DNA from: an uncultured Gammaproteobacteria bacterium
Lineage (GTDB): Bacteria > Patescibacteriota > Microgenomatia > CAYGWK01
NCBI GenBank assembly: GCA_964353785.1
Contig: CAYGWK010000002.1
Span: 40,293 to 104,292 of the forward strand
Reading direction: 5' to 3'
Length of the DNA: 64,000 nucleotides
The notes beneath the pieces are model-generated. The model was not told the origin of the DNA, did not search any database, and saw only the letters and a program-made list of their open reading frames with translations. Below are positions 4,604 to 13,345 of the stretch, in pieces (position 1 is the first letter of the stretch; every line of letters starts with the position of its first letter). The position numbers and the translations under genes were made by a program.

Positions 4604-5260
4604 TTATTCGTGAATTATAATTCTTGTTCCCGGGTTATCTCCAGTTGACCTAACTGCATTTAGATTATCAACCGAGGGAGTTGTCCAGTAAAAAAGTTTT
4701 TCCGCTACTGGCGTGGGTAAATTAGTACATCCATGACTCATGGTTTGACCAAAGTTATTGTGCCAATAAGTTCCGTGAAGCCCAAAACCATTCTGATAAT
4801 ACATAATATAAGGGACGTTTGGAAGGTAATAATAGGTATGAAGAGCGCGACTTCCCCCAGACATTTTGGCATACTTAAACTTAGACCAGATTCTGTACTC
4901 GCCTGTCGGTGTCCTGGCCCATTTTCCAGTAGAAACCAAGGATTCTAAAAAAAGTCTCTCCCCTTCCCAAGCCCGAAGTTTTTGTTCAGATAAATCAACC
5001 TCAATCCATTTTTCCTCGCCAGTTGCCTCTCCCAGAACTTTTCGTTCGTTTGGGGAAAGTTCCCATCTGGCTGCCAAAGGGGCAGAAATTTCTTTTCCCT
5101 CAAAATAAGCCTGCGTCTCCCCAAACTGGAATCCTCCAGTTCCTTGACAGTGACAACCAGGTTTTTCAAGCAAAAATTTTTGGCTAGACAAAAACAAAAC
5201 CAAAATCGCCAAAAACAAAGCCGAGGAAAGAAGAATTAAGAAAAATCCTTTTTGTTTCAT
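4604..5260 (-). CDS. L,D-transpeptidase (YkuD/ErfK domain), secreted
   Basis: N-terminal signal/TM, catalytic motif HGTYWHNNFGQTMSHGCTNL (His…Ser-His-Gly-Cys). Confidence 0.8.
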   Translation of the reverse strand: MKQKGFFLILLSSALFLAILVLFLSSQKFLLEKPGCHCQGTGGFQFGETQAYFEGKEISAPLAARWELSPNERKVLGEATGEEKWIEVDLSEQKLRAWEGERLFLESLVSTGKWARTPTGEYRIWSKFKYAKMSGGSRALHTYYYLPNVPYIMYYQNGFGLHGTYWHNNFGQTMSHGCTNLPTPVAEKLFYWTTPSVDNLNAVRSTGDNPGTRIIIHE

Positions 5261-5311: not shown

Positions 5312-5593
5312 ATGGACTCTCAAACCAGCACCTACGAGAAACCATTGTCAACAACTTTTTTAAGACAACTGCTGATTTACTCTGTAAGCTTATTTTTACC
5401 CCCTCTGGGAATTTGGCCTGCTATTAAATATTTGCGTCAACAGGATGAAAAATCAAAAAAGATTGGTTTAGTAGCGCTTTTTTTAACCATAATTTCAATA
5501 GTGATAACAAGTTGGTTAACTATTAGTTTCATAAACTCATTCAACAAAGAACTTGGTAACCAGCTCAATCTTTACCAAGGTATAGAGTACTAA
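5312..5593 (+). CDS. small hypothetical membrane protein (2 TM)
   Basis: 93-aa ORF with two hydrophobic helices; no homolog recognised. Confidence 0.35.
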   Translation: MDSQTSTYEKPLSTTFLRQLLIYSVSLFLPPLGIWPAIKYLRQQDEKSKKIGLVALFLTIISIVITSWLTISFINSFNKELGNQLNLYQGIEY

Positions 5594-5620
5594 TATTAGC
5601 CTCGCAAGGGGAAATTGTCT

Positions 5621-6172
5621 TCAGGGCATACACGAGGGCCAAATATAGGTTTGACCAAGAGATAAAATAAAAGCGGCTGTCTGGACAGCCTCCTCAGCAT
5701 TGAAACGCAGGTCTGGGTTGATGTCTTCACCTAATAAATTACGGTACTTAATCCAGGTACTCGACGTGAATTGATAAAGTCCGGCGTAGCTAAGATTTGT
5801 TGCCAAGGGATTGAATCCGGACTCGCAAACAGCAATATATCTTAAGACATTCGGGTCAACGCCATATTGTCCTGCAAATCTTTCGATAAAACCATTTATC
5901 TGCTCAGAGCTAACCGATGATTGAGGAGTTGGGGTTGGCGTTGGTTTGAGGGTGGGCGTCGGCGTGGGTTTAGGCTTGGGCGTAGGAGTTGGAGTATTCG
6001 TTGGTTCTGGAGTTGGAGTTGGCGTCAAAGTTGGAAAAGGGGTCGGAGAAATAATCGCAGATCGCTGAGAAAGAATGTCTCCTTCCGAAAAGATATTTTT
6101 TTCAAAAAGGAAAATTCCCCCGCCTCCGATAAGAAGACCTACAAAAACCGACATAAAAAAAGCTTTCCACAC
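5621..6172 (-). CDS. membrane-anchored transglycosylase-like (Rpf/SLT-type) protein with Pro/Thr-repeat linker
   Basis: N-terminal TM, (PT)n linker, C-terminal motif [10 protein letters not shown]…[12 protein letters not shown] typical of Rpf-like transglycosylase domain. Confidence 0.6.
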
Positions 6173-6266
6173 CTTAACACCATATTAAAGCATTGTTTAG
6201 GAAAATTGAAAAGTGGAAAAAATTGTCTTCAGGCTCAAAATTTGCTAAAATTAATCTGCATTTTAT

Positions 6267-6337
6267 TGGAGAGTCGTCTAACGGTAGGACAGTAGCCTCT
6301 GGAGCTACGAATCTAGGTCCGAATCCTAGCTCTCCAG
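6267..6337 (+). tRNA. tRNA-Gln (anticodon CUG)
   Basis: Acceptor TGGAGAG/CTCTCCA (U1-A72 as in bacterial tRNA-Gln), U8, D-stem GTCT/GGAC, anticodon stem GTAGC/GCTAC loop CTCTGGA, T-arm CTAGG-TCCGAAT-CCTAG, discriminator G. Confidence 0.75.
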
Positions 6338-6342
6338 CAAAA

Positions 6343-6410
6343 TCTAGGTTCGCCTGCCCCGCTGAAGCCGAATGCTAAACTTTTGTGGGGAATCCTAGTC
6401 CCGCAGCAAA
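6343..6410 (+). repeat. two partial direct copies of tRNA-Gln 3' half (6343-6362 aatctaggtTCGcctgcc; 6389-6410 gaatcctagtcccgcagcaaa) immediately downstream of the tRNA
   Basis: Direct comparison with tRNA T-arm/acceptor 3' strand gaatcctagctctccagcaaaat. Confidence 0.55.
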
Positions 6411-6976
6411 TGAAAGATAAGATTCTCAGAAAAATTTCTAAAGTTGATTATCTTCGAGAGATATTATTACGTCACAGAACTGAGTATAAAAAAATACTAG
6501 AGATAATAACCAAGCGCAACCTCACGCATAAAAGGGGTATTGGATTCTGGTCACTTACCAGAATGATTTTCCCAGTTATTGAAACCGTTGCCGATGTTGT
6601 CGAAAAGGAAAAAGAAAAATTTCTTAGTGAGGAACTGGGAGTCCCTTTTGGATTTGTTGTTTGGGAAATGTATCGCAATTCACTGATGCATACTGATGAA
6701 TTAAGGTACATAGTCTATAAAAGGAAAACAATTTTTTGGTCAATTCAATTAGGAAATGAAGATATTGGCCACCTAATTACCAAGCAGACTGATTCAATGT
6801 ATGCTGCAATACATTTGAGTATTCCTAAACTATATAGAGATTTAGAAACATTTTTAATATCAGAAATTTCCAAAAACGACAAGTCGATTATAAATGTTCA
6901 AGTTGGTAGTTACTTTTCGAAAAAAAGTAAAGGAATTCTATTAAAAGAACTCAAAGAAATACATTCAAAATATTAG
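6383..6976 (+). CDS. hypothetical protein with HEPN-like R-N-x3-H motif (YRNSLMH); possible start at 6410
   Basis: 197-aa ORF; alpha-helical-looking, motif EMYRNSLMHTDE matches Rx4-6H of HEPN RNases (inference only). Confidence 0.45.
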   Translation: MWGILVPQQMKDKILRKISKVDYLREILLRHRTEYKKILEIITKRNLTHKRGIGFWSLTRMIFPVIETVADVVEKEKEKFLSEELGVPFGFVVWEMYRNSLMHTDELRYIVYKRKTIFWSIQLGNEDIGHLITKQTDSMYAAIHLSIPKLYRDLETFLISEISKNDKSIINVQVGSYFSKKSKGILLKELKEIHSKY

Positions 6977-6988
6977 CTATGAAGAAAG

Positions 6989-7030
6989 TTATAAGGATTA
7001 ATTGGGTCCTGACCGACACGCCCAGCCAAG
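6989..7030 (+). repeat. island inter-cassette repeat R2 (tataaggatTaaTTgggtcctgaccgacacgcccagccaag)
   Basis: Homologous to R3 (8306-8347) and R5 (9378-9413). Confidence 0.5.
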
Positions 7031-7070
7031 ACGGGCACCCAAGTGTAGCTGAATTCCATCAATCAATTCC

Positions 7071-7709
7071 ATGTCAATAAACGACGCGGTAACAATTCCA
7101 GAAGAGATAAAGATTCAAATGCAAATGCAGGCGTACCTCGACAGAGCGATTGATTATTATATTTTTGCACGCAAGGCAGTTATGCTTGGTGTGTTACCCG
7201 TAGGCGGTAGCTTGTTTCATATAGCGGTGGAGATGGCGCTACACTGCGGATTATCAACTAAGTATTCCCAGACTGAACTTGAGAAAAGATTCTTGCATCA
7301 CGAACTTCCTTATATGTGGTCTGAGTTTAAAACAACTTTTATAAGTACTAAACTTTCTAAGTTTGATAAATTCGTAAATCATCACCGGCAGTGGAAAGAA
7401 TTGAGATATCCGAAGAGTAAATCAAAAGGATCGATAATCTTTTTTGGTCGTACTAAACCTGATCCTGAAGTTATGAAGAGAAATATGGCGAATTTTCCTA
7501 AGAGCAACATTCAAATAGAAATAAACCTTGAAGACATGGATGAGTTTATGACCGCTTTAATTCTAGCAATTGGTATAAACCCTGACCATATTAAACTCCA
7601 CCTTCAACACAACGCTGAGTTGCAGAAACTTTATCTTGACGAGAATGTTCATCCATTGTTTAGCGCCGATACAAAGGTTAGCTCTACTACTCTCTTACAA
7701 AGGCAATGA
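7071..7709 (+). CDS. hypothetical protein, classical HEPN-domain-like N-terminal half
   Basis: SLFHIAVEMALHCGL…HHELPYM…QWKELRYP resembles PF05168-type HEPN helix pattern (FHaqQavEkaLK…RYP); inference. Confidence 0.45.
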   Translation: MSINDAVTIPEEIKIQMQMQAYLDRAIDYYIFARKAVMLGVLPVGGSLFHIAVEMALHCGLSTKYSQTELEKRFLHHELPYMWSEFKTTFISTKLSKFDKFVNHHRQWKELRYPKSKSKGSIIFFGRTKPDPEVMKRNMANFPKSNIQIEINLEDMDEFMTALILAIGINPDHIKLHLQHNAELQKLYLDENVHPLFSADTKVSSTTLLQRQ

Positions 7710-8311
7710 TGGGAAATAACATGAATAAAAAAATTAAATGTCAAGAATGTAATAGAGAATTCACAAATATGACCACGCATTTAATAAAAGCGCATGGTCT
7801 AAGTAAAAAAGACTATCTTCTGAAATATCCTGGAGCCAAAATAGTTTCAGATACCTTTCGAGAATGGCAGAGAAATAGAATGAAAAAATTATACGAAAGT
7901 GACAATGTTGGTTATAGAAAGATAGCTGGTAGTAGAACATTCGATTTTGTTAAAAATAATAAATTAAGATTATTACTCCAAAGAGACTACCAATCTGCAA
8001 AAAAATGTTTACAAAACGAATTATGGAAACCCGCAATCATTCTTTACGGTTCTCTAATTGAGGCAGTTTTAAGAGAGGCCACAGAGACAGAAGATTTCAA
8101 GTCTGCGCTAGATAAGGCGCTTAAAGAAGAAATAATTTCCGACACGGAATTTCATCAAATACATGTCGTGAAGGACTTTAGAAATTTTGTCCATTTACAT
8201 AAAGAGCTATCAGAAGGAGGGGTAAGGGTAATAAGTGACTATTGGGCAAGAACCCTTTCCGAAATATGCGAGTCGCTTATAAAAAGATTTAGAAAAGTGG
8301 GGAAACTATAA
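7706..8311 (+). CDS. Ros/MucR-type C2H2 zinc-finger protein fused to HEPN-like C-terminal domain
   Basis: KCQECNREFTNMTTHLIKAHGLSKKDY = C-x2-C-x9-H-x4-H-G-L-S-x3-Y as in Ros/MucR (PF05443); C-terminal DFRNFVHLH R-x4-6-H; start overlaps previous ORF stop by 4 nt (operon). Confidence 0.55.
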   Translation: MMGNNMNKKIKCQECNREFTNMTTHLIKAHGLSKKDYLLKYPGAKIVSDTFREWQRNRMKKLYESDNVGYRKIAGSRTFDFVKNNKLRLLLQRDYQSAKKCLQNELWKPAIILYGSLIEAVLREATETEDFKSALDKALKEEIISDTEFHQIHVVKDFRNFVHLHKELSEGGVRVISDYWARTLSEICESLIKRFRKVGKL

Positions 8312-8347
8312 GGATGAAAGGGTCCTAGACCAGCCTGCTCAGCAAAA
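8306..8347 (+). repeat. island inter-cassette repeat R3 (tataaggatgaaagGGTCCTAGACCagccTGCTCAGCAaaat)
   Basis: Contains palindromes GGTCCTAGACC and TGCTCAGCA and tRNA-Gln-3'-end-like tcctag…cagcaaaat. Confidence 0.5.
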
Positions 8348-8420
8348 TAAAAAATCCTTAAGTATCTACCTATCACACACCGGGCTATGATATAATAAGT
8401 TGCCATAAAAAAATATTTCT

Positions 8421-8996
8421 ATGCCAAACTTAGATGAACTTCTTAAAGAAAGAGCCGAAAGACAAAAAGAGTCAGATGAAAGATGGGAAGAATTAAAAAG
8501 ACAGAGAGTAGAAGAAGAGAGAAAAGATCAAGAATATTTTGATCAACAAGTTGCACCATATGAAGAGGCTTTTAGGGTAGCAGGCCTTTATATTGATTTA
8601 AAGGCCTTGTTTCATCATCTTGACACTCAAGGTGCCCCACCACGGGTTGATGAAGTTATTCACATAAGAGCACATCCGGAAAATGATTATTTTGTTTATT
8701 CCTCGATGCAACCAAAAGATAAAACACTAAGCACTGTTATGTCTGCAATGCTTCGAAGAGAACTCAGAGAATACCATAGAACTATTATCGGTTATGGATT
8801 CAGGATTGACTGGAATTATCATTCTATAGATATCCTATCGGAAATTGATCCTACGAGTGACCAACAGATATTTGTTATAAAAGAATATCAACTCGATGTG
8901 CATCATGACCGCCTCATTCCCAATCGGCCATTGCGATCCTTCAAGACTCTTGAGCCAGATGCAATTCGACAAAAACTTTTAAATATTATTACTTAA
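8421..8996 (+). CDS. hypothetical protein (charged N-terminal coiled region)
   Basis: 191-aa ORF preceded by TATAAT-like box at ~8388; no recognised domain. Confidence 0.4.
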   Translation: MPNLDELLKERAERQKESDERWEELKRQRVEEERKDQEYFDQQVAPYEEAFRVAGLYIDLKALFHHLDTQGAPPRVDEVIHIRAHPENDYFVYSSMQPKDKTLSTVMSAMLRRELREYHRTIIGYGFRIDWNYHSIDILSEIDPTSDQQIFVIKEYQLDVHHDRLIPNRPLRSFKTLEPDAIRQKLLNIIT

Positions 8997-9012
8997 ATAC
9001 ACCAGTGACTAT

Positions 9013-9038
9013 TCTAGTCTAGGCCAGTCTGCTCGGGG
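9013..9038 (+). repeat. island inter-cassette repeat R4 (tctagtctaggccagtctgctcgggg)
   Basis: Shares ctag-N-ccag-N-ctgctc-gg core with R1/R3/R5. Confidence 0.4.
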
Positions 9039-9112
9039 AATTTTTATTCCAATATTCTTAAGAATTTGAGAATAGCGAAAAAGATTACCACAATTTGAGG
9101 CAGTTTTGAAGT

Positions 9113-9141
9113 GTTGACAAACTACCATCGCGCGTTGATAC
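9113..9141 (+). promoter_or_regulatory. candidate promoter TTGACA-17-GATACT upstream of small membrane ORF
   Basis: TTGACA at 9113-9118, GATACT 17 nt downstream. Confidence 0.3.
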
Positions 9142-9195
9142 TTTTAATTTATAGTGTTATATTTTAATCATATGAAGAAAGGGAGGTGGAAAAAA

Positions 9196-9366
9196 ATGCA
9201 TGATACTGCCGGTGCGGGCGCTGTTTATGGCTTGGGTTTAGTCGGCGCAGTAGTCTATTACATCCAACATGCAAAAACATTTGGGGAAGGAGTGCTTGGT
9301 TTCCTCAAGGCCTTGGTCTGGCCTGCCATGCTAATATATAAACTTCTGGAATTTCTGAAAATGTAG
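9196..9366 (+). CDS. small hydrophobic protein (2 TM, ~56 aa); ORF track start 9154 less likely
   Basis: Strong SD GGGAGGTG 7 nt before ATG at 9196; MHDTAGAGAVYGLGLVGAVVYY… two helices. Confidence 0.45.
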   Translation: MHDTAGAGAVYGLGLVGAVVYYIQHAKTFGEGVLGFLKALVWPAMLIYKLLEFLKM

Positions 9367-9377
9367 ACACTTTTACG

Positions 9378-9413
9378 GGACTGAAAGTTTCTAGCCCGGC
9401 CTGCTCAGCACGA
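9378..9413 (+). repeat. island inter-cassette repeat R5 (ggactgaaagtttctagcccggcctgctcagcacg)
   Basis: ~80% identical to R3. Confidence 0.5.
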
Positions 9414-9429
9414 ACAAAGGAGATCAATT

Positions 9430-10005
9430 ATGGAAAGAACTACAATAAGTCAAATATCGGTTACAGAGCCGAAAGAAAAAGAAAGTAATCTTGATGAATT
9501 GTACATAAAACAGGGACTAACAAATAATCAAGTTGAGCAGTTAATCTTCTACTCGAACACGGACAAAGAAGTCCAAAGATTCACTTCTGACCCAAAACGC
9601 TTCAAAGATAAAAAAGCATTCGAAAAATGGAGACAAAAAGGTAGGATTATTTACACCATAACAGACCTTGAGGATAATTTACTTGGAATTATCTGGTTTG
9701 GCGAGGAACCCTTACCTCAAAGAGAATTTACCCAAACCTTTAACCCTCAAGAATTCGGGATTACTTTTGCTATCAGAATTTATGGAGAAGCCAGAGGTAA
9801 AGGTCTAGCAAGAAAATTTATGACCGAAACTTTTAAACACCTTATGAGCTCTAGTGTTTACGAAAAAATGGAGAATAAAGGAATCTGGCTAGAGACATCC
9901 ATAGATAATACTCCGGCTCTTAAAGCCTATGAGAAATTCGGCTTCAAGCAAATCACAAATCCAAATGAGAACCAAAAGATATTAATGATTCTTAAAGAAT
10001 TTTAA
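9430..10005 (+). CDS. GNAT-family N-acetyltransferase
   Basis: Motif A-like RGKGLARKF and C-terminal …ALKAYEKFGF; 14-nt convergent overlap with gltX. Confidence 0.7.
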   Translation: MERTTISQISVTEPKEKESNLDELYIKQGLTNNQVEQLIFYSNTDKEVQRFTSDPKRFKDKKAFEKWRQKGRIIYTITDLEDNLLGIIWFGEEPLPQREFTQTFNPQEFGITFAIRIYGEARGKGLARKFMTETFKHLMSSSVYEKMENKGIWLETSIDNTPALKAYEKFGFKQITNPNENQKILMILKEF

Positions 10006-11275
10006 TCGCCGCCTTTAGTCGTTTTAGTGTTTCTTCTTTTCCTAAAATTTCCACTGAATCCGTAATTGGGGGGGTGATTTTGGAACCGGTGATGGCGATG
10101 CGAAAATTCATAAAAAATTCTCCTGTTTTCCAACCTTTCTCTTTTACTAATTCCTGAAGTGTTTGTCCCAGATTTTTCTTATCCCAGGTTTTGAGTTTTT
10201 CTAAGACTTCAAGGGCTAAAGATAATTGTTCTTTTGCCTCTTTAGTAAATAATTTTTTGTCAACCCTGGGCTCTTTGAAAAAGAATCCAGCCAGAGCAGG
10301 ATAATCTGAAAGTTTTGTCAGTCTTTCCTTGACCAAAGGAATAGTTTGATTAATTAAATTGGGGCTGGCTCCTTTTGGAGCAAATTGTTCAATTAATTGA
10401 ACTAGTTGGCTATCAGACTTTTTTCTAATATATGCTCCATTTATCCAGTCAAGTTTTTCAAAATTAAAAATTGGAGCAGTCGTCACCACTCTTTCAAAAC
10501 TAAAAAGTTTTATAAATTCCTCTAAAGGAAAAATATCTTTTTCTTTTGGATGAGACCAGCCTAAAAGACAAAGAAAATTAACTAAGGCTTCGGGTAAATA
10601 TCCTTGGTCTTTATACCAAGATAAAGCGACCGGGTTTTTTCTTTTTGATATTTTTGACCGGTCCGGATTTCGCAAAAGTGGCATATGGGCAAAAAATGGT
10701 AGTTTTTCTCCTAGAGCTTGGTAAAGGAGAATTTGTTTTGGGGTATTTGAAATATGTTCTTCAGCCCTGATGACATGAGAAATTTTCATGGCCAAATCAT
10801 CAACCACGCAAGCAAAATTATAAGTCGGATAGCCATCAGATTTAAGCAAGACAAAGTCTTCGATATTCTCATTTTTGAAAATAATTTTTCCCCGAACTAA
10901 ATCATCCCAAGAAGTTTGGCCAGTTTTGGAAACTTTGAGACGAACCGCTCCCTCATCTTCGTAGGCTTGTTTTTTCTCCAAAAGTTTTTGACAAGTTTTT
11001 TTATAAAGAGAAAGTCGCTCCGATTGCCGATATGGTCCAAAAGGACCGCCAACATCCGGTCCTTCATCGTAGAGTAAACCAAGCCAACGAAGACCCTCAA
11101 AAATTGCTTTTTCCGCTTCGGGGACATGACGCTTAACATCAGTATCCTCAATCCGCAAAATAAATTTGCCTTTAAATGCCCGCGCAAAAGCGAAATTAAA
11201 AAGAGAAAGATAGGCGGTGCCAACATGAGCAAAACCGGTTGGCGAGGGAGCAATTCTTGTCCGAACTTTTTCCAC
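9992..11275 (-). CDS. gltX: glutamate--tRNA ligase (short form)
   Basis: HIGH-type motif PTGFAHVGT, RIEDTD, KISKR (KMSKS). Confidence 0.9.
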   Translation of the reverse strand: MEKVRTRIAPSPTGFAHVGTAYLSLFNFAFARAFKGKFILRIEDTDVKRHVPEAEKAIFEGLRWLGLLYDEGPDVGGPFGPYRQSERLSLYKKTCQKLLEKKQAYEDEGAVRLKVSKTGQTSWDDLVRGKIIFKNENIEDFVLLKSDGYPTYNFACVVDDLAMKISHVIRAEEHISNTPKQILLYQALGEKLPFFAHMPLLRNPDRSKISKRKNPVALSWYKDQGYLPEALVNFLCLLGWSHPKEKDIFPLEEFIKLFSFERVVTTAPIFNFEKLDWINGAYIRKKSDSQLVQLIEQFAPKGASPNLINQTIPLVKERLTKLSDYPALAGFFFKEPRVDKKLFTKEAKEQLSLALEVLEKLKTWDKKNLGQTLQELVKEKGWKTGEFFMNFRIAITGSKITPPITDSVEILGKEETLKRLKAAIKIL

Positions 11276-11325: not shown

Positions 11326-12378
11326 ATGGCCACTTTAACCGTCACTGCCTACTACACCCGCAAAGGAATAAAATACGGAGCAATTTTTTTTGTTGGGTTT
11401 TTGATTTTTCGCTTTATTTGGGGAGTAACCACGGCTTATCTTCGCAAAATTCATCCTCCTCCCCCGCCTCCACCAACGGTTTCTTTTGGTAAATTGCCAA
11501 AGATTGATTTTCCTAAAAGGGAGGGGTTTCCAACTCTTTCTTTCAAACTTGAAACAATCCAAGGAACAATCCCCACCCTTTCCTCAATTGGTAAAGTTTA
11601 TTTTTCGGTTAAGCCCGGAGCCACTCTTCTTTCTTTAGACCGAGCCAAAGAGACCGCCAGAAAAATGGGTTTTAGCTCCGCGCCCCAAGCTTTGTCCTCG
11701 CGAGTCTATCGTTTCTCCACCCAGACGGCGCCGCCAACAACCTTAGATATAGACATCGTTACTGGAAATTTTAGGCTCCATTACGATTTTTCAAGCGACC
11801 AATCTATCTTTGTTGAAAAAAAGCTACCTTCAAATGACCAGGCAATTTCGGAAAGCAAAAGTTTTCTCCAAGGAGCCGGACTTCTAGTTGAAGACCTGGC
11901 GTCCGGAAAAGCCGAGGTTTCTTATCTTAAATATCAAGCACCAAATTTGCTTTCTGCCATCTCTTTATCCGAAGCAGACCTTGTTAAAGTCGGGCTTTTC
12001 CGCCAAGACCTAGATAGCTTGCCAGTTTTGCCAGAAAATCCAAAAGAAGGTTTAATTTATTTTATTTTCTCCGGAGCAAGGGAGCGAGGAAAAAGAATTG
12101 TTGAGGCAAGTTATAACTACAACAAGGTTGAAAAAGAGAATTTTTCCACCTATCCTTTAAAATCGACGACAGTGGCCTGGCAAGAACTTCAGGGAGAAGG
12201 GGGATTTATTTCAAACTTAGGAGAAAACACTGATGGCAAAATTACTATTAGAAAAATTTATCTTGCCTATTTTGATTCGCCCCAAGCACAAAATTTTCTT
12301 CAGCCAGTCTTTGTCTTTGAAGGAGACGACAACTTTGTTGCCTACGTCTCGGCGGTTGATTCTAAGTGGGTGGAATAG
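11326..12378 (+). CDS. hypothetical membrane-anchored protein with poly-Pro segment (ORF track start 11239 overlaps gltX; Met at 11326 preferred)
   Basis: One N-terminal TM then PPPPPPPT; no recognised domain. Confidence 0.45.
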   Translation: MATLTVTAYYTRKGIKYGAIFFVGFLIFRFIWGVTTAYLRKIHPPPPPPPTVSFGKLPKIDFPKREGFPTLSFKLETIQGTIPTLSSIGKVYFSVKPGATLLSLDRAKETARKMGFSSAPQALSSRVYRFSTQTAPPTTLDIDIVTGNFRLHYDFSSDQSIFVEKKLPSNDQAISESKSFLQGAGLLVEDLASGKAEVSYLKYQAPNLLSAISLSEADLVKVGLFRQDLDSLPVLPENPKEGLIYFIFSGARERGKRIVEASYNYNKVEKENFSTYPLKSTTVAWQELQGEGGFISNLGENTDGKITIRKIYLAYFDSPQAQNFLQPVFVFEGDDNFVAYVSAVDSKWVE

Positions 12379-13345
12379 ACCAACTAAAATTTCCAAAAAC
12401 CCAATCTAGCAATTTTTCTGTTTCCCCAAATCTGTCCTGACTTCCCAAGACAACAGTAATAATTTGTTTTCCGTTTTGCTCATCAAAACCAACCAAACAT
12501 TCTCCAGCGGAAATCGTCCAGCCAGTTTTAATCCCCTTAAGACCAGGGACACTTCCCAGAAGAACATTGATATTTGAGATTGGATGGACAAATTTCTTAT
12601 CATAAGAGTAAACAACAACTTTTTTGGTAGCGACAATTTTGGCAAAAACAGGATTTTGAATGGCAATTTTAGCCAGCCTGGCTAAATCAGAGGCGGTGGT
12701 AAACTGTCCCTCTTCGTCTATTCCGGTCGGGTTTGTAAAATGGGTATTTAAAAGACTTAACTTTTTGGCTTTTTGGTTCATCTGGCTAATAAAATTTTCT
12801 CTCCCTCCAGGATAATTTTGGGCTAGGGTTTCGGCCGCATCATTGGCTGAGGCCACCAAGAGAGCGTAAAGGAGATTTTCAGCTGTCAGTCTTTCTCCTT
12901 TTTGAAGTTTAATATCTTGACCTTCAGAAAAAACCTCTAAAACTTCCAAAACTTGGTTTAGTTGATAGAAATCTAAAGCGACTAAAGCAGTCATTATTTT
13001 TGTGGTTGAAGCTGGTAAAAGTTCTAAATCTTTATTTTTTTCATAGATTATTACCCCAGAAAAAACATCAGAAACCAAAGCCGATTTTGCTGAAAGAGAA
13101 GGCGCTGGAATGCCAGTTTTGTTTTTGGGGAGAGGTACCGGCGGGGAAATAACAAAATGAGAAGCGAAGACTTTTGGTCTCTGCCAAGAGAGTCTTAAAT
13201 TATCATAATAAGTTTGCCCAGGAAGAAAGAAAATAATTAAGAAAGTTAAAAGAAAATCAAATCCCAGTATTTTTCTTTTCCACAAAAATTTGAAGAATTT
13301 TTTGAGATTTCTTAACTCCCTTGAAATCTTTTTTACGGGGCTCAT
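12362..13345 (-). CDS. dacA: D-alanyl-D-alanine carboxypeptidase (S11, PBP5-like)
   Basis: SxxK ASTTKIMTA, SxN ASANDAA, KTG KTGWT; N-terminal TM. Confidence 0.85.
   Translation of the reverse strand: MSPVKKISRELRNLKKFFKFLWKRKILGFDFLLTFLIIFFLPGQTYYDNLRLSWQRPKVFASHFVISPPVPLPKNKTGIPAPSLSAKSALVSDVFSGVIIYEKNKDLELLPASTTKIMTALVALDFYQLNQVLEVLEVFSEGQDIKLQKGERLTAENLLYALLVASANDAAETLAQNYPGGRENFISQMNQKAKKLSLLNTHFTNPTGIDEEGQFTTASDLARLAKIAIQNPVFAKIVATKKVVVYSYDKKFVHPISNINVLLGSVPGLKGIKTGWTISAGECLVGFDEQNGKQIITVVLGSQDRFGETEKLLDWVFGNFSWSIPPT

Follow-up and report, generated by a model that had tools for sequence, protein, structure and literature searches.

Several described systems can be compared with the locus analysed here, an array of five small open reading frames (ORFs) and short repeats that lies directly downstream of the tRNA-Gln(CUG) gene in a 64,000-nucleotide stretch of contig CAYGWK010000002.1 (the whole of this stretch is called the window in what follows). 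Integrons carry an intI integrase gene beside an attI entry site, and their attC sites are imperfect palindromes with R''/L''...L'/R' boxes that fold as single strands, structure being conserved over sequence. In streptococci, cis-mobilizable elements (CIMEs) are reportedly bounded by attachment (att) sites, devoid of recombination genes, able to accrete in tandem, and mobilised by integrative and conjugative elements or integrative and mobilizable elements (IMEs) with known integrases. The ssrA islands of Dehalococcoides are said to be kilobases long, to carry their own recombinase and to form tandem stacks with direct repeats of the ssrA 3' end. These horizontally acquired islands are found site-specifically at the single-copy ssrA gene of a streamlined genome (PMC3146451). 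Islands, tandem arrays included, that tyrosine integrases build at tRNA and tmRNA genes are the principle of the Islander database (PMC4383910), and tycheposons are defined by a site-specific integrase of their own clade together with replication and mobility hallmark genes (10.1101/2020.12.28.424599). Full-text literature searches give no description of arrays such as the present one in Patescibacteria.

In the window, the five ORFs 3' of tRNA-Gln are all oriented like the tRNA gene, with repeats between them (coordinates are collected in Table 1). R2 to R5 belong to one family of about 40 nt, called R, and a second family, R', is found in related arrays. The 3' end of tRNA-Gln is probably a recombination hotspot, with R and R' as the att-type junctions of small cassettes. 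The array extends from 6339 to 9414, perhaps to 10005. A preliminary description of this DNA had noted a block of five ORFs and repeats directly after tRNA-Gln(CUG), on which ARAGORN, Rfam and the ORF list agree; its observation largely holds and is partly confirmed, and its interpretation is partly supported.

With integrase-built tRNA islands, the locus shares an intact tRNA gene at one end (6267-6338) and a variable content. Displaced 3' tRNA fragments that start in the T loop are represented by R1, which is of a different allele and lies next to the gene, and by the exact 18-nt direct repeat of L051, while the distal repeats R2-R5 of the window are diverged mimics. It differs from them in that no integrase is found inside or near about 20 arrays, in that the units are single genes of 0.4-1.3 kb, and in that most junction repeats, i.e., the R copies, are a diverged and independently conserved 40-nt sequence and not a copy of the resident tRNA. 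Like the tycheposon islands of Prochlorococcus, it belongs to a small streamlined genome, is hypervariable, uses a specific tRNA, contains partial tRNA copies and carries defence or niche cargo, whereas no integrase or replication gene is found in the array, the target is tRNA-Gln and the host belongs to Patescibacteria. The likeness to integrons, and to clusters of attC sites lacking integron-integrases (CALINs), lies in a fixed entry site, a variable array of compact, co-oriented cassettes, a site directly after the ORF, small proteins rich in toxin or defence functions, and no excess of internal promoters. In contrast to integrons, no IntI is found, R is conserved in sequence and not in structure, and the entry is a tRNA end instead of attI. 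Reading of the R alignment reveals no RYYYAAC/GTTRRRY inverse cores, no hairpin is predicted and no attC-type site is recognised, and the genes upstream of tRNA-Gln, where intI would sit, encode an SLT transglycosylase, YkuD and Lon. The units bounded by R, R' or the tRNA resemble CIMEs since they carry cargo only, would need an integrase in trans and stack in tandem, but they are much smaller and no partner element is seen in the fetched loci; this likeness, that of att-bounded units without recombination genes, holds only descriptively. Finally, a streamlined genome and a small-RNA gene as the site are shared with the Dehalococcoides islands, the ssrA target of which is, unlike ours, a tmRNA gene.

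The R family was first modelled by a profile that had R2, R3 and R5 among its seeds, plus matching sites from other genomes. With these seeds included, nhmmer finds R2, R3 and R5 at E 2.7e-9, 7.2e-9 and 4.9e-8, the remainder of the 64-kb window giving nothing better than E 1.8. An expanded profile recovers R2, R3, R5 and, weakly, R4, without any further copy in the window, and independent, non-seed copies are recovered from other genomes (e.g., at E 1e-5 from L003; L numbers designate the loci compared). R2, R3 and R5, which had been proposed to share about 40 nt, are thus members of one profile-defined family. R3 and R5 have 27 nt in common at 81%, the two palindromes pointed out earlier, GGTCCTAGACC and TGCTCAGCA, are found in R3, and the motif TCTAGnCCnGnCTGCTC is read in R3, R4 and R5. 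R4, also listed as a repeat from the start, does carry this motif, but is a degenerate copy that scores poorly although it was a seed. The consensus, GTTATAAGGACTAAATGGTCCTAGACCGGCAyGCTCAGC(C)AA, is conserved in sequence, with a mean column identity of 66% over 31 copies.

Other descriptions of R were considered and set aside. Its specificity belongs to the whole 40-mer, short pieces of which occur at chance frequency: the 11-mer CCTGCTCAGCA alone is not a usable marker, as it is found 9 times with at most two mismatches vs. 9.3 times expected, i.e., without enrichment. R is not a structured RNA either, since RNAalifold predicts no pairs, the mean folding z-score is -0.58 and the intergenic folds range from z -1.3 to +1.1. 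A possible AGGAC-N6-GTCCT hairpin appears in about 12/31 single-sequence folds, with changes that are almost only one-sided. The tRNA is the sole Rfam match within 5500-10500, where no family corresponds to R. A generic intergenic repeat or terminator is discarded, as no copy occurs elsewhere in the window and the architecture is not terminator-like. A phage origin finds no support: scans of viral contigs with exact patterns gave only GC-rich chance matches, no relative of ORF3 is found in viral contigs, and neither the island DNA nor ORF3 has a match in GenBank phages.

Of 33 R copies at E<0.01, 32 have a co-oriented upstream ORF, and in 25 of these 32, R starts between -16 and +24 nt from the preceding stop codon; the next ORF usually begins 15-100 nt past R, on the same strand. 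In several genes, it is R that supplies the final codons together with the stop. The boundary that R forms is sharp. When the window is compared with nine other ORF3 cassettes, homology runs from the start codon to 8343-8346 and then ends abruptly, either within the GCTCAGCA core of R or at most 2 nt beyond.

R could be a mere conserved 3' flank of the ORF3 family, its other copies having been left behind when ORF3 genes were lost. An ORF3 homologue indeed precedes about half of all R copies, the last protein codons (...SYKD stop) are often read from R, and the loci were gathered through ORF3. R nevertheless follows ORF3 homologues and unrelated genes alike: it lies behind unrelated genes in the two loci that were obtained independently of ORF3, namely L003 (found via gltX, two copies) and L097 (found via ORF2, four or five copies), and no ORF3-like sequence is present upstream of GTTAT in any of these copies. 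Moreover, the separate R' family holds the same positions, and the tRNA-Gln link and the common trailer box described below would be left without explanation. This alternative is therefore regarded as very improbable.

The comparison across genomes was based on loci gathered via ORF3 homology, the contexts being taken from genomes as well as metagenomes, and R and R' were searched for in 464 kb of sequence (52 related loci). The ORF3 family comprises 141 homologues at E<=0.001, and all named source organisms are Patescibacteria lineages. On contigs with tRNA-Gln, R or R' occurs 22 times, always downstream of the tRNA 3' end, at 0.46-3.9 kb, and 20 of the 22 copies are on its strand; none is upstream. 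The arrangement recurs in about 20 related genomes. In 18 non-redundant loci, an ORF3 homologue follows a tRNA-Gln (CUG or UUG) of the same orientation at a distance of 30-2750 bp. Three ORF3 loci with 10 kb of upstream DNA contain no tRNA-Gln in it, and two loci have a tRNA-Ser instead. The ORF3 unit comes first after the tRNA in L018, L024 and L067 and second to seventh elsewhere, and its neighbours are almost all singletons in an all-against-all comparison. L003 shows the order tRNA-Gln, 329-aa ORF, R, 253-aa ORF, R, and in L097, which holds the closest ORF2 homologue with context (75%), the R copies surround two unrelated genes, with no ORF3. A nucleotidyltransferase cassette compared between L024 and L074 shows neither nucleotide homology nor R.

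The closest relative, L002, is syntenic on both sides of the array, yet has none of the five ORFs and neither the GNAT nor the SLT gene. Together with the singleton neighbours, this upholds the earlier view that the array is variable and cassette-like and depends on the 3' end of tRNA-Gln for its location. R is not scattered among intergenic regions, as it is restricted to positions downstream of tRNA-Gln on the contigs that hold this gene and absent from the rest of the window, and the locus is not conserved in synteny, as judged from its nearest relative.

Three other features of these loci deserve mention. In L002 (11276-12800), a different tRNA-Gln(CUG), inverted vs. the conserved flanks, and a small coiled-coil ORF lie between gltX and YkuD; past this tRNA-Gln come about 1.1 kb of ORFs that are visibly rich in GC and look foreign (12145-12643), with no R or R' copy. 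In L050 (3693-3803), two opposite-strand R copies stand behind minus-strand genes and face the plus-strand tRNA-Gln array, as if a second array had converged from the other side, the contig ending at 5134. Tandem R copies, 30-70 nt apart and with no gene between them, are present in L078 (320-401) and L097 (397-570 and 2163-2253), and could be empty cassettes or deletions between sites.

All five repeats of the window had been said to resemble the 3' end of the tRNA, and this likeness proves unequal. Against the 3' end of the window's own tRNA, alignment is significant for R1 (p ~0.0005) and R3 (p ~0.002), and not for R2, R4 or R5; R3 and the tRNA gene end in an identical 9-mer, CAGCAAAAT. R2 is related to tRNA-Gln of other genomes, as it aligns over 46 nt to the 3' half and trailer of the L056 gene (p<0.001) and as its tail, CAGCCAAGACGGGCACC, is identical at 16 of 17 positions to the L003 tRNA-Gln trailer. 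A trailer box, CAGC(C)AAGAnGGGCACCCnnnGTGACCG, is found after tRNA-Gln in L003, L047 and L056 and also after R copies, i.e., R2 of the window and copies in L057, L046, L018 and L003. Furthermore, every R copy ends in CA-G-C(C)A, an acceptor-end mimic, the R end GCTCAGC(C)A imitating tRNA-Gln from the final acceptor-strand bases through the discriminator G to C(C)A. R' (GGTTCnAACnTCGTCC...CCGCAGC(C)A) is plainly tRNA-like and is placed in other arrays as R is here; L018 has R and R' interleaved, and L024 has both. These sequence comparisons support the idea that the R repeats derive from, or imitate, the 3' end of tRNA-Gln together with its trailer.

R1, initially placed with R2-R5, is of a different kind. 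It is the 3' fragment of another tRNA-Gln allele, situated 1-2 nt after the tRNA-Gln gene, and its T loop is interrupted by an insert of 38 nt (6353-6390) that forms a hairpin. Its two halves joined, AAATCTAGGTTCGAATCCTAGTCCCGCAGCAAA, provide a perfect T arm, the acceptor 3' strand, G73 and CA, and are identical to the L056 tRNA-Gln 3' end at 29 of 33 positions; local alignments of R1 reach 18/19 with L056 and 18/20 with L024 (p<=0.001). The acceptor strand TCCCGCA of R1 cannot pair with the 5' strand TGGAGAG of the functional gene, which is therefore another allele, meaning that the gene has been replaced. In L051, a 69-nt insert lies between the tRNA and the ORF3 homologue, immediately 5' of the latter, and on both sides of it stands an exact 18-nt repeat, GAATCCCTGTCGGGCAGC, which starts within the T loop and whose displaced copy retains a CCAAGAC trailer. 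Site-specific integration into tRNA genes classically leaves an att duplication of this type.

Stuttered tRNA-Gln 3' ends seem common at this site. In L050 (1990-2035) and L051 (1185-1289), a second partial 3' end is found within 20-70 nt of the functional tRNA-Gln, that of L050 being of a different, L018-like allele and that of L051 being the exact 18-nt repeat. In L021 (3885-5083; also L022 and L048), a Transposase_mut (IS256-type) gene directly follows tRNA-Gln(UUG), and the original tRNA 3' end and trailer box (CCCTCCCCAACCAAGACGTGCATCCCGGAGTAACCGG) recur past the transposase, at 5050-5083. As to the insert in R1, it is placed exactly between TTCG and AAT of the fragment's T loop and folds as a hairpin (CCCCGC/GTGGGG). 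Both of its ends are similar to parts of a second tRNA-Gln allele, one to the 3' strand of the T stem plus the acceptor and the other to the 5' strand of the T stem, which gives the impression of an att site opened within the T loop.

The allele exchange also bears on whether a dedicated recombinase is needed at all. Homologous or homology-facilitated illegitimate recombination at the conserved tRNA gene after DNA uptake could have built the array, R being kept for a role in the transcript (3' end formation, stability or processing) or as a regulatory site bound by a protein. The window and L002 differ over the entire stretch from gltX to YkuD, the tRNA-Gln gene and its orientation included, and the 3' fragments of a different allele that follow the functional tRNA in the window and in L050 fit gene replacement better than simple integration. 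In addition, R is always at the 3' end of a co-oriented gene, T runs follow some R copies, and no recombinase has been found. However, (i) R has no conserved structure and is not built like an intrinsic terminator, (ii) a general 3'-end signal would be expected at other genes, while about 85 other ORFs of the window (greedy calls) carry none, (iii) site-specific exchange would be expected to produce both the exact 18-nt duplication of L051 and a break of homology in the CAGC core, and (iv) 40 nt is short for efficient homologous recombination. On balance, an array built without a dedicated recombinase appears distinctly unlikely.

We therefore return to the preferred reading, in which the tRNA-Gln 3' end receives small cassettes. 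In each unit, a short leader precedes one gene or two, and an R of about 40 nt stands at or beside the stop codon; in a subset of copies, a trailer box like that following tRNA-Gln genes comes after R. A site-specific recombinase encoded elsewhere in the genome could pair the tRNA-like site of a cassette with the tRNA-Gln end or with another R. The crossover would take place at or just 3' of the acceptor end, and the tRNA would consequently stay intact. Each event would leave an att-type junction and push older units away from the tRNA. As the genes are co-oriented with the tRNA and tightly packed, the tRNA promoter may read into the first units; a consensus scan indicates a sole promoter-like site positioned to drive tRNA-Gln, from which transcription would continue into the array. 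A promoter-like box had been attributed to each cassette, but the island contains 16 promoter-like matches vs. 12.4 +/- 3.8 in shuffles, and strong ones only in the ORF5 unit (two 10/12 matches at 9114-9163), so that one promoter per cassette is not supported.

Several points weigh against this reading. The R profile gives no match to real tRNA-Gln 3' ends at E<1, and the 5' two-thirds of R have diverged from the tRNA. The replacement of the tRNA-Gln gene is not explained by one simple integration. Since the loci were collected through ORF3, the association is ascertained via one gene. Distant homologues of ORF1 and ORF2 (<=73% identity) have neither an R array nor a tRNA-Gln nearby, and the ORF2-ORF3 junction is devoid of R, hence not every gene boundary is a site. 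Neither a circular form, nor an empty site, nor strain-level presence/absence at an R boundary is observed. Lastly, Pfam identifies only housekeeping or unassigned proteins, and no recombinase, among the island ORFs, their neighbours and ten sampled ORFs (8-25357). Together with crude searches of the whole window, this agrees with the preliminary description, which had seen no integrase. Across 48 loci, tyrosine and serine recombinase motifs (regular expressions) and XerD- and Hin-like probes (phmmer) are also without match, these being crude and weak probes, and most ORFs of the window beyond about 25 kb being covered by the crude searches only. Precomputed annotation of L018, L021 and L024 contains no recombinase within 6 kb of the arrays.

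The array could instead be the remnant of successive larger, integrase-carrying elements (prophage-, IME- or tycheposon-like), from which cargo and att scars would be left, the cassettes never having been mobile. Partial tRNA copies and an 18-nt att duplication are present, as such a history would have it, and tandem integration, partial tRNAs and degraded remnants are documented in Prochlorococcus islands (10.1101/2020.12.28.424599); the Islander database is built on the same principle (PMC4383910). ORF3 and R could form a terminal module conserved within one family of elements, the genes upstream of it being variable, and an ORF2 homologue lies in an island with a large serine recombinase (L094). 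Nonetheless, no intact element or integrase fragment is seen in about 20 arrays, several of which have 6-10 kb of flank. Random loss predicts neither that R abuts the stop codon so consistently nor that a well-conserved 40-nt site follows each unrelated single gene, and units of 0.4-1.3 kb are far below the size of known integrative elements. Decay of larger elements is thus rather unlikely. Mobility of cassettes through a recombinase acting in trans is favoured over it, because conserved sites abut the stop codons behind unrelated single genes and because no integrase remnant is found.

Patescibacteria have tiny genomes and few recognised mobile elements, and how they acquire and exchange defence genes is, to our knowledge, largely unknown. 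One possibility, which we put forward only tentatively, is that the arrays represent an undescribed integron-like capture platform in Microgenomates (Patescibacteria), with tRNA-Gln as the entry, R and R' as the sites, a recombinase encoded elsewhere, single-gene defence cassettes, and the tRNA promoter driving the nearest units. With its conserved junctions and without a resident integrase, a recurrent stack of cassettes at tRNA-Gln would offer a very large uncultured group a compact way to exchange defence and toxin genes. The R and R' profiles and the trailer box are sequence handles with which metagenomes could be searched for circular intermediates, for strain-level cassette turnover and for the missing recombinase. 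If the junctions were only scars of ordinary integrative elements, they would still be a clear case of tRNA-anchored island building outside the lineages known to us for it.

From its predicted domains, the cargo appears to be of the defence or toxin kind, with three HEPN-type proteins. HEPN-like motifs had been proposed for it at the outset, and the helical HEPN fold is clear for ORF2, with weaker signals for ORF1 and ORF3; ORF2 has no clear Rx4-6H motif, its invariant residues being H104, H105 and R112, whereas R89 and H94 are invariant in ORF1. ORF3 matches DUF4145 (E 1.3e-4) and ROS_MUCR (E 8e-4) in Pfam, both just below the gathering score. Its finger, CxxC...HxxxxH, gives a profile match to Ros (2jsp, E 1.3e-5), and R159, N160, H163 and H165 (RNxxHxH) are invariant in the homologue alignment. 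The antiphage RNase RAZR (PD-T7-4) combines an N-terminal zinc finger, related to Cys4 zinc ribbons, with DUF4145 (PMC13017515). ORF3, the recurrent cargo of the arrays, shares the domain layout of RAZR, i.e., a zinc finger and a C-terminal DUF4145 (a divergent HEPN domain), as well as conserved Arg/His residues and a length of about 200 aa, but its finger is of the Ros/MucR type and not of the Cys4-ribbon type. PADLOC reports no PD-T7-4 match, its sole result being weak and concerning a model for type I methyltransferases. By analogy with RAZR, ORF3 is a candidate abortive-infection effector in Patescibacteria. The ORF2 cargo family also occurs in a different mobile context in L094 (1621-9271), where a 72%-identical homologue ends a block that is bounded by the large serine recombinase and contains a MerR-type helix-turn-helix gene, a type III-like methyltransferase, a ResIII helicase/endonuclease and an SLFN/AlbA_2 gene.

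The favoured starts of the five ORFs (ATG 6410 for ORF1, 7071 for ORF2, ~7721 for ORF3, 8421 for ORF4 and 9196 for ORF5) rely on database gene calls and homologues. The GNAT gene begins 15 nt past R5, and no R is found 3' of it, because its end overlaps the convergent gltX. As it is missing from the gltX-to-tRNA-Gln interval in both L002 and L003, it may be the oldest, terminal cassette. The flanking genes checked by Pfam are housekeeping, with GreA, Lon, the YkuD transpeptidase and the SLT transglycosylase upstream, and gltX, RelA/SpoT, RecJ, the CCA-adding enzyme and SecDF downstream. The gltX product is 85% identical to that of a 'Patescibacteria group' metagenome-assembled genome (L002) and 54% identical to that of a Woesebacteria one (L003); the host belongs to the Microgenomates/Woesebacteria part of Patescibacteria. 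The GC content of the island is 32-36% vs. mostly 39-44% in the upstream flank, the gltX side just downstream having only 35%.

Table 1. Features of the tRNA-Gln array and its borders, in window positions.
Feature	Positions	Strand	Basis or remark
Promoter-like site 5' of the tRNA gene (TTGTCT, 17 nt, TAAAAT, with TG)	6223-6251	+	Consensus scan, 9/12 matches
tRNA-Gln(CUG), array anchor	6267-6338	+	ARAGORN; Rfam tRNA 56.7 bits, E 1.1e-10; CCA not encoded
R1, displaced 3' fragment of a different tRNA-Gln allele	6340-6410	+	6340-6352 plus 6391-6410, split in the T loop
ORF1, 188 aa, moderately HEPN-like	6410-6976	+	
R2, R-family repeat, 9 nt past the ORF1 stop	6986-7031	+	nhmmer E 2.8e-9 (expanded profile)
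Trailer box (CAGCCAAGACGGGCACCCAAGTG...)	7022-7056	+	Trailer profile E 6e-5; as in tRNA-Gln trailers of other genomes
ORF2, 212 aa, HEPN fold	7071-7709	+	
ORF3, 196-201 aa (ORF opens 7706), Ros/MucR-type zinc finger and DUF4145 (HEPN-like)	7721-8311	+	
R3, R-family repeat overlapping the ORF3 stop codon	8305-8348	+	nhmmer E 4.6e-9 (expanded profile)
ORF4, 191 aa	8421-8996	+	No significant family match; no homologue in other loci
R4, degenerate R-family copy, 7 nt past the ORF4 stop	9004-9041	+	nhmmer E 0.085 despite being a seed
ORF5, 56 aa (public-assembly call, L001; ORF opens 9154), small hydrophobic	9196-9366	+	No family match
R5, R-family repeat, 5 nt past the ORF5 stop	9372-9414	+	nhmmer E 6.7e-7 (expanded profile)
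GNAT acetyltransferase gene, possible last array unit	9430-10005	+	Pfam Acetyltransf_3, E 1.7e-8

Some minor observations concern the tRNA-Gln genes and their neighbours. The T loop of the functional tRNA-Gln, TCCGAAT (region 6313-6329 of the window; also 7227-7256 in L061), has a C where the near-universal U55 is expected, and the R consensus has this GGTCC start in common with it. A dnaX gene, recurrent upstream of tRNA-Gln(UUG), was considered as a candidate and set aside, its clamp-loader motifs designating it as DNA polymerase III gamma/tau, a housekeeping protein. A dnaX-like gene is found upstream of tRNA-Gln in L058, L061, L071, L074, L075 and L085 (with tRNA-Gln(UUG) in 5 of the 6), and identifies the tRNA there as a chromosomal gene whose surroundings are conserved. 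Small GIY-YIG genes (about 80-100 aa), which could be cargo or contribute to DNA breakage at the site, are found repeatedly in contact with tRNA-Gln or inside arrays, in L021 (3508-3807), L024 (5656-5910), L085 (~5900-6326), L057 (6228-6500), L003 (14972-15220) and L092 (7976-8212), and their stop codon touches or overlaps the tRNA gene in L021 and L024.

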